Of a stretch of 64,000 nucleotides of DNA, positions 1 to 24,846 are shown piece after piece. Numbering within the stretch: position 1 is the first letter of the stretch; every line of letters begins with the position of its first letter. The DNA comes from a virus: positions 55,267 through 119,266 of the IMG/VR virus record IMGVR_UViG_3300007735_000799. One strand, 5' to 3'. Made by a program: the position numbers and the translations under genes. The notes beneath the pieces are model-generated. The model made no database searches and was not told where the DNA came from. It saw nothing but the letters and a program-made list of their open reading frames with translations.

Positions 1-83
1 CTTGGCTCGGCGTTGGGTCTTTCAACCGTCCACCGAATTTGACGAGTTTCATGTTTTGTATTCCTACAAAACTGCTCCTATTG
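1..83 (-). mobile_element. Group I intron (IC3-like), 5' part, inserted in a tRNA anticodon; continues beyond the left edge
   Basis: Minus strand reads CUU^CAAUAGGAG (P1 with U34.G pair), GUUUUGUA-GGAA-UACAAAAC (P2 with GNRA loop), AAAUUCGGUGGA (P element), GGUU-GAAA-GACC hairpin and AACGCCGAGCCAAG (Q element), as in tRNA-Leu(UAA)-type introns. Confidence 0.85.
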
Positions 84-117
84 AAGTCGGCTACTCTACC
101 AATTGAGTTACCAGAGC
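84..117 (-). tRNA. tRNA 5' exon (positions 1-34; anticodon begins with U, identity unresolved)
   Basis: GCTCTGG TA ACTC AATTGGTA GAGT A GCCGA CTT gives acceptor 5' strand, D-arm with GG, anticodon stem 5' strand, C32 U33 U34; exactly 34 nt. Confidence 0.9.
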
Positions 118-24534: not shown

Positions 24535-24846
24535 TTAGGCAGTCGCAGCAGCCTCCGAGGGGGTGACAGGGGACTGCGCCCCATTCGCTGCCACGAAAGC
24601 ATCGAATTCCACCCAAGGGAGGGAGTAAACGGCTCGCTGCACAGTGAAGTTCGCCGAGTTCGTCAGCCAAGCAGGCCACCGAAGCGTGTACCCGAAAGGA
24701 CCAGTCTTGCCTTGCCACTTGGTTTGAATATCCAAGAGTGCCTTGCGTGTCACCGTGGTGGTGCGACCAAACTCCTGTTCAAACTGAGCCATGAAGTTGG
24801 CTTGACGCTTGTTCAGACGAATCGTGATGTTGTTGGTGTTGCTCAT
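24535..24846 (-). CDS. Stand-alone homolog of the N-terminal domain of the MoxR/CobS-like ATPase
   Basis: VTRKAL...WPAWLTN...RAVYSLP versus IDRTTV...NPAWLTN...RGYYRIP in 26016..27296. Confidence 0.6.
   Translation of the reverse strand: MSNTNNITIRLNKRQANFMAQFEQEFGRTTTVTRKALLDIQTKWQGKTGPFGYTLRWPAWLTNSANFTVQRAVYSLPWVEFDAFVAANGAQSPVTPSEAAATA

Follow-up and report, generated by a model that had tools for sequence, protein, structure and literature searches.

The stretch of DNA analysed here (the window, 64,000 nucleotides) covers positions 55267-119266 of a 119,266-base IMG/VR virus record (G000:C1), and its left edge cuts through a tRNA gene that lies on the minus strand and is interrupted by a group I intron. 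Together with the window we examined the flank G000:C1 47267-57266 (L002), in which every position equals the window position plus 8000, so that features beyond the left edge carry negative window numbers. The viral origin of the record is indicated by its IMG/VR entry, by genes for an SbcCD-like nuclease and a helicase, by a set of 18 tRNAs and by its presence in viral-metagenome runs, and we estimate that the 119-kb contig is a fragment representing about half of a freshwater phage genome. DNA runs containing the stretch stem from several studies and include river, lake, wetland and viral-metagenome samples.

The 5' exon of the interrupted gene (tRNA nucleotides 1-34; window 84-117, minus strand), recognised both by reading the sequence and by ARAGORN in intron mode, runs from window position 117 down to 84 as GCUCUGG-UA-ACUC-AAUUGGUA-GAGU-A-GCCGA-CUU and comprises the acceptor strand, the D arm, the anticodon stem strand and C32, U33 and U34, just as a sequence-only reading of the window had described it (a 34-nt tRNA 5' half ending at U34). 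The 3' exon lies to the left of the window (L002 7898-7859, window -102 to -141, minus strand); it starts with UUAAUCGGU and ends with CCGGAGC-A, the last base being the discriminator A73, and its UCGGU and CCGGAGC segments pair with GCCGA and GCUCUGG of the 5' exon, respectively. ARAGORN in intron mode reports the two halves together as tRNA-Lys(ttt), i(35,185), at L002 c[7859,8117], corresponding to G000 c[55125,55383]. Since the spliced anticodon loop reads CUUUUAA, the gene encodes tRNA-Lys(UUU) and the intron is located between nucleotides 34 and 35; of the two identities suggested earlier from the 5' half, Lys(UUU) is retained and Thr(UGU) is discarded.

Besides the split gene, the contig carries 17 ordinary tRNA genes, and the split gene is the sole tRNA-Lys that ARAGORN found on it. 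When the window is analysed alone, default ARAGORN does not call the split tRNA and returns only a tRNA-Arg(UCU), and Rfam at the gathering score yields the same neighbouring tRNA-Arg(UCU) without a group I match. The tRNA cluster also includes, 2.1 kb to the left of the window (L002 5798-5883, minus strand), a tRNA-Ser called by ARAGORN with the anticodon ACU, whose A34 is unusual for bacteria and phages.

Anatomy of the intron

The whole intron is 185 nt long (G000:C1 55165-55349; L002 7899-8083; window -101 to 83; minus strand). Its first 83 nt occupy window 1-83 (minus strand), the window edge falling inside P6, and the remaining 102 nt (G000:C1 55165-55266), to the left of the window, contain the rest of P6, P7, the 3' strand of P3, P8, P9 and the terminal omega-G. 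With these 102 nt of flank added, the covariance-model check proposed in the sequence-only reading matches the intron to Rfam family RF00028 from end to end (48.5 bits, E = 1.4e-11, model positions 1-253). The intron scores 1.5 bits under the RF00028 gathering score of 50, which is a curation threshold and not a defining trait of group I introns, and an allele from a related phage (L005), different at two intron positions, scores 50.6 bits with the same model. No second group I intron copy was found in the record.

All the elements that had been read from the window portion, namely P1 (CUU/GAG with a U.G pair), a GGAA-capped P2 and the P and Q elements, are located within window 86-7, on the minus strand. 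P1 is formed by exon CUU (window 86-84) and intron GAG (77-75) and consists of 3 bp with the U.G pair at the splice site. The intron begins with CAAUAG-GAG, of which UAG|GAG constitutes the internal guide sequence (5'-UAG/GAG-3'; window 75-80, minus strand): GAG provides the intron strand of P1, whereas UAG (80-78) pairs with UUA at the very start of the 3' exon to form P10. P2 (window 53-72, minus strand) is an 8-bp helix closed by a GGAA tetraloop at 64-61. The 5' strand of P3 (window 46-41, minus strand) is followed by J3/4 AAA, and P4, composed of the P and Q elements, has its 5' strand at 36-31 and its 3' strand at 12-7 (minus strand). The P5 hairpin (27-16) and the start of P6 (5-4), both on the minus strand, complete the part inside the window. 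To the left of the window, where P7, the omega-G and a pairing 3' exon had been sought as a check, all three were found; the omega-G is L002 7899 (minus strand), and the intron ends in ...GUGGUAAG.

P9 forms a three-way junction both in the structure alignment and in the free-energy fold, and computed on the intron by itself, the minimum-free-energy structure contains P2, P4, P5, P6, P8 and the three-way P9 (z = -3.64). The boundary of the intron is set to the base by an allele with an empty site (L176), given the sequence of the loop.

Related introns in viral tRNA genes

A search of IMG/VR with a 20-nt motif spanning J6/7, P7 and P3 (AAGGUGUAGAGACUNGACGG) retrieved at least 120 loci, and a search with the 3' end of the intron retrieved 14. 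Among the matches listed, 94 introns could be mapped inside split tRNA genes using ARAGORN in intron mode and the U(-1)/terminal-G rule, two of the 94 being the window locus itself (as L001 and L002). The hosts of these 94 introns, again among the matches listed, are predominantly tRNA-Leu(UAA) (68), followed by Lys(UUU) (8), CAU (7), Arg(UCU) (6) and Thr(UGU) (2), with single introns in Lys(CUU), UCA and Arg(CCU) tRNA genes.

To these data we added an alignment (A1) of 47 distinct introns from tRNA genes on viral contigs, taken from the matches listed. The P1-P9 structure used for the pair counts was derived from the window-phage intron, with P7 treated as a pseudoknot, and the aligned sequences are kin; with this structure, 91.9% of the cells are paired, compared to 30-47% after sliding the 3' partners by 1-3 columns. 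P3 and P7 are 100% paired and P4 is 99.6% paired. Changes on both sides are seen in 37 of the 52 pairs, including all eight pairs of P2 and four pairs of P3, and none of 500 shuffles attained any of the observed covariation measures. Forty-five columns are invariant over the 47 introns, and every one of them is kept in the window-phage intron. Together with the Rfam match (E = 1.4e-11) and the ARAGORN intron-mode call, the covariation over the 47 introns bears out the central claim of the sequence-only reading, namely that a phage tRNA is interrupted by a group I intron at position 34/35.

The guide sequence changes with the host gene. P10 pairs at all three positions in each of the six distinct Lys introns among the matches listed; in Leu hosts, where the 3' exon starts with AAA, the guide is UUU|GAG, in Thr hosts (GUA) it is UAC|GAG and in Arg(UCU) hosts (CUA) it is UAG|GAG. 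Such tracking of the host tRNA is the pattern expected of working, retargeted introns and is hard to explain for dead sequence. One further tRNA-Lys(UUU) gene (L018 2510-2774) is split by a related intron at position 35/36, with a 5' exon ending in CUUU and a 3' exon starting with UAA, so that the same tRNA has been invaded at two adjacent positions.

The window-phage intron belongs to a compact sub-lineage of seven members, about 183-189 nt in length; the other six reside in tRNA-Lys (L005, L012, L019 and L031) and tRNA-Leu genes (L046 and L113). In every member P8 has 5 bp and the loop AGAAC, and P2 carries a GGAA loop, whereas most other members of the family have a longer P8 with CCUAA...UAUGG and a GAAA-type P2 loop. 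The window-phage intron thus lacks the Azoarcus-type clamp between a GAAA P2 loop and an 11-nt-type P8 receptor, an absence that we treat as a variant feature and not as one that defines the subgroup. The shared changes suggest that the P2-P8 tertiary contact was remodelled in the compact sub-lineage, and the seven members may go back to one evolutionary event. With P8 cut to 5 bp without a receptor-like motif and P1 reduced to 3 bp, the intron may depend on a protein or high Mg to fold efficiently.

Several other introns were met in the course of the searches. Around 21 Rfam group I matches, all on one strand and separated by ~50-160 nt, fill 10.7 kb of one viral contig (L004 252-10693, IMGVR_UViG_3300034096_001425; the same sequence recurs as L007, L008 and L009); one of these introns has the 17-nt junction GCCGACTT|CAATAGGAG in common with the window tRNA intron, and comparison of the array with annotated phages gave matches to intron cores only. 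In a 595-kb uncultured phage (LR756511.1; L010 819-1605, unannotated in the record), tRNA-Leu(UAA) is interrupted, at 34/35, by a group I intron of 700 nt with an HNH-like ORF in the P6 loop and a P7-P9 end that is 86% identical to that of the window intron. The capsid genes of Pelagibacter phage HTVC120P (L003 2473-2665) and of uvDeep KM23-C739 (L011 1447-1627 and 2156-2336), though annotated as two separate CDS, are split by compact, related group I introns, those of L011 scoring 77-78 bits with Rfam; judging from the sequences, marine podophages, cultured as well as uncultured, seem to have splicing that their annotation misses.

Alleles of the locus and the adjoining HNH gene

The search for a homing endonuclease to the left of the window, suggested in the earlier reading, revealed a free-standing ORF for a 119-aa HNH endonuclease downstream of the tRNA gene (L002 7820-7461, window -180 to -539, minus strand). 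The ORF is contained in a 411-nt cassette (L002 7858-7448, window -142 to -552, minus strand) that directly follows the tRNA and is absent as a block from L005 and L176. Its best PHROG match is phrog_2255, 'HNH endonuclease' (E = 1.3e-19), and its match to the Pfam HNH family (E = 0.0018, 18.8 bits) falls under the cut-off of 21.4. The predicted protein includes an N-terminal four-Cys module and an HNH motif and keeps the residues C52, C55, H67, H68, D70, C99, C102, H103 and H107, which do not vary among the 23 family members aligned. The family comprises ~50 clusters, all of them metagenomic, and a profile search of the PDB with it gave no matches.

Searching viral contigs with the spliced exon junction identified 95 tRNA-Lys(UUU) loci without the intron, among them L176, whose two flanks are syntenic with those of the window phage and whose gene is uninterrupted, with the exons joined at CUU|UUAA. 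In a three-way alignment (A2), L176 lacks exactly the 185 nt of the intron, L005 has the intron only and the window phage has both the intron and the 411-nt block. Across relatives, four allelic states are found: neither element in L176, the intron only in L005, both elements in the window phage, L012 and L021, and the HNH gene only in L425, L426 and L430. The last group of loci, HNH-positive and intron-less, indicates that the enzyme can do without the intron.

The eight closest HNH homologues in IMG/VR (at least 50% identity) all adjoin a tRNA-Lys(UUU) or Lys-like gene, which is intron-bearing in four cases (window phage, L012/L427, L021/L428 and L431) and intron-less in the other four (L425, L426, L429 and L430); two of the latter four are odd tRNA-Lys-like genes not called by ARAGORN. 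These two sequences (L425 1385-1460 and L430 1385-1460) combine the loop CUUUUAA with D and T arms of unusual form (T arm GUGGGGGCAGUACCCAC), are ARAGORN-negative and directly precede the respective HNH homologues. In L431 (1190-1500, IMGVR_UViG_3300045125_000034), the 5' strand of the acceptor has an extra base and the 3' strand matches it poorly, and this allele may be a decaying copy of the intron-bearing tRNA-Lys gene.

More distant members of the HNH family adjoin many other phage tRNAs, and a tRNA gene is present at most 400 nt upstream in 46 of 80 loci. A family HNH gene adjoins 4 of the 10 intron-bearing tRNA-Lys contigs among the matches listed versus 1 of the 95 intron-less loci, a comparison that may not amount to four independent events, because the four loci with intron and HNH gene may share one ancestor. 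The arrangement is the one described for collaborative homing systems, in which a free-standing endonuclease gene lies next to the intron and is separable from it in relatives.

Splicing, mobility and known tRNA introns

We consider it highly likely that a true group I intron of the IC3 type, probably capable of self-splicing, is inserted between U34 and U35 of the only tRNA-Lys gene found on the contig. The anticodon loop location and a core like that of the Leu, CAU and Arg tRNA introns agree with IC3, a label that rests on the survey of Williams 2020 (bioRxiv 10.1101/2020.01.27.920355) and the database cited in it, and the features shared with those introns here are the 34/35 position and the 20-nt motif. 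Catalysis by the intron, which we infer from its sequence and structure, would proceed along the following lines. Upon transcription of the tRNA cluster, the intron would fold into P1-P9 with the P3/P7 pseudoknot, and the guide 5'-UAG|GAG-3' would hold both the end of the 5' exon, CUU, through a U.G wobble, and the start of the 3' exon, UUA. Free guanosine would then attack after U34, and the freed 3'-OH of U34 would attack after the terminal G, yielding mature tRNA-Lys(UUU) and a linear intron of 185 nt.

One reservation concerns autonomy, as a true group I ribozyme of this kind could be non-autonomous and may need an RNA chaperone or maturase, of the host or of the phage, at physiological Mg. 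The short P8 without a receptor-like motif and the GGAA P2 loop in all seven members of the compact sub-lineage point in this direction, as does a Rfam score of 48.5 bits compared to 64-86 for many viral introns; yet none of the 45 invariant columns is missing, the sub-lineage has been maintained in six or more distinct sequences that show compensatory changes, and the Azoarcus intron works with a 3-bp P1. We deem dependence on a protein unlikely. A much smaller place has to be given to the idea of a dead relic, that is, a tRNA pseudogene with a splicing-defective intron. The irregular acceptor stem of the IMGVR_UViG_3300045125_000034 allele might be cited for it, but the window gene is the only tRNA-Lys on its contig and its exons form a regular cloverleaf, while conservation, with compensatory changes between lineages, extends to the guide, the U.G pair, the terminal G and the core; decay of the window copy is therefore very improbable. 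Hardly any more credence is due to the proposal, raised in the sequence-only reading, that the intron guards the precursor against anticodon nucleases, whether by protecting the tRNA-Lys or by timing its supply. tRNA-Lys(UUU) is the classical target of PrrC, and the precursor has no anticodon loop; however, splicing would yield a tRNA-Lys(UUU) of the ordinary kind, as cleavable as any, close relatives manage without the intron (L176 and the 95 intron-less loci), the same intron family also resides in tRNAs that PrrC does not target (Leu, Arg, Thr and CAU), and neither nuclease nor repair genes are linked to the locus. The shielding proposal thus finds no support here.

As to mobility, and with clearly less confidence, somewhat short of even odds, the downstream 119-aa HNH protein may act as a free-standing homing endonuclease whose targets are intron-less phage tRNA-Lys genes, and may take part in collaborative homing with the intron. 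By splitting the target of the endonuclease, the intron would protect its own genome, and it would be carried along during repair of the cut gene. It is also quite possible, if somewhat doubtful, that the HNH gene is unrelated to the intron, being a SegB-like endonuclease of the tRNA cluster that lies beside tRNA-Lys by chance, with the intron spreading or persisting through vertical descent, recombination or reverse splicing. In favour of a chance association, the wider family is found beside many different, mostly intron-less tRNAs (46 of 80 loci with a tRNA within 400 nt upstream), close homologues adjoin intron-less tRNA-Lys genes, and both L005 and L019 retain the intron without the HNH gene. 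Against it stand the specificity of the closest homologues for tRNA-Lys(UUU) and an adjacency that is far commoner at intron-bearing loci (4/10 versus 1/95, with the shared ancestry mentioned above in mind).

Assembled contigs of four metatranscriptomes, which cannot display a 76-nt tRNA or its splice joint, span nearly the whole intron (L002 7899-8075, with two differences), and their coverage stops short of the exons, the HNH gene and the other flanks; no splice joint or spliced product was seen among them. In two RNA contigs from two studies (runs X16 and X18), the match ends exactly at the terminal G and is followed by 30 letters unlike the tRNA 3' exon. This 30-mer maps to window 24617-24646 (minus strand) of the same genome, inside an ORF for a 103-aa protein (window 24535-24846, minus strand), making window 24617-24647 (minus strand) a possible ectopic target. 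At the junction the omega-G is joined to ...CACUGUGCAGCG, the stretch that in the ORF directly follows ...GGCGAACUU; the break thus lies at the terminal G of the intron on one side and directly after CUU, the target of the guide, on the other. No DNA copy of the intron/mRNA junction was found in the viral contigs of IMG/VR or in JGI metagenome contigs (0 matches in each), all 66 matches to the presumed 5' junction pattern are unrelated GC-rich coding sequence, and the two loci with relatives of the 103-aa ORF are both uninterrupted. That the excised intron acts on other RNAs, the junction being a product of reverse splicing or the trace of a protein gene that the intron entered very recently by that route, strikes us as rather unlikely; alternatively, the junction may come from an unsampled strain with the intron in the 103-aa ORF. 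According to a 2014 review, direct evidence for the reverse-splicing pathway was lacking (PMC3984707).

Williams 2020 raised the number of known settings of bacterial tRNA introns from 4 to 21, and the seed alignment of that study includes two rows from bacterial tRNA-Lys genes, Mle24.Lys.3Ug (34/35) and Mpe6.Lys.4Ug (35/36) (10.1101/2020.01.27.920355). A Lys host at 34/35 is accordingly not new for bacteria, and the isoacceptor, called atypical in the sequence-only reading, is so with respect to the four classical cases and not with respect to Lys.3Ug and Lys.4Ug. The window intron has the traits that make up 'Lys.3Ug', namely a tRNA-Lys host, insertion after loop position 3 (34/35), U at -1 and G at omega, and differs in that the introns of Williams come from bacterial genomes while the window intron is on a virus contig. 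In its visible letters, the Mle24 seed row differs from the window intron in the P3-P4 region, and on this partial view the two may represent separate lineages.

The 20-nt J6/7-P7-P3 motif is also present in at least 120 bacterial loci, chiefly in Leu(UAA), CAU and Arg(CCU) tRNAs and, among the matches listed, in Proteobacteria, Acidobacteria and others; the first 120 bacterial loci include neither a tRNA-Lys host nor a full-length close relative of the window intron, the best being 77% identical over 120 nt. The window intron resembles the classical bacterial tRNA introns in being ORF-less and compact (185 nt; the Azoarcus intron has 205 nt), in its anticodon loop location, in its P1-P9 architecture and in GNRA-capped P2 and P9, but differs from them in the 5-bp P8 without CCUAA/UAUGG, the GGAA P2 loop, the three-way P9 and the phage tRNA-Lys host. 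A bacterial Leu intron occupies the same 34/35 position, 'CUU/a...g/AAAA' (Williams 2020, 10.1101/2020.01.27.920355).

Known pairs in collaborative homing are the psbA intron of cyanophage S-PM2 with F-CphI (PMC6083498) and T4 mobE with I-TevIII (PMC2790892; reviewed in PMC3984707). As in these systems, intron and endonuclease gene are found both apart and together in relatives of the window phage; unlike in these systems, the interrupted gene encodes a tRNA and the putative enzyme is a small HNH protein with an N-terminal four-Cys module. SegB of T4/T6 (PMC2330249, cited in PMC3984707; PMC13096335) is a free-standing GIY-YIG homing endonuclease encoded in a tRNA gene cluster; the HNH gene shares with segB its free-standing location inside a phage tRNA cluster and differs from it in family (HNH versus GIY-YIG) and in its association with an intron, which SegB is not known to have.

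According to the 2014 review, every phage intron then described resided in a protein-coding gene, despite the many tRNA genes of phages (PMC3984707), and the literature searched, including that after the review, yielded no mention of group I introns inside tRNA genes of phages. The window locus and ~90 other interrupted tRNA genes from viral contigs show that the statement of the review fails for uncultured phages. The window intron is an unusually small addition to a known intron family, in an under-reported class of hosts, the tRNA genes of phages. Since default tRNA finders miss split genes, the tRNA sets of phages are under-counted. The compact sub-lineage represents a natural minimal group I ribozyme of possible use in folding and engineering studies, and the series of empty, intron-only, endonuclease-only and combined alleles coexisting in related phages is of the kind predicted for the birth of mobile introns.
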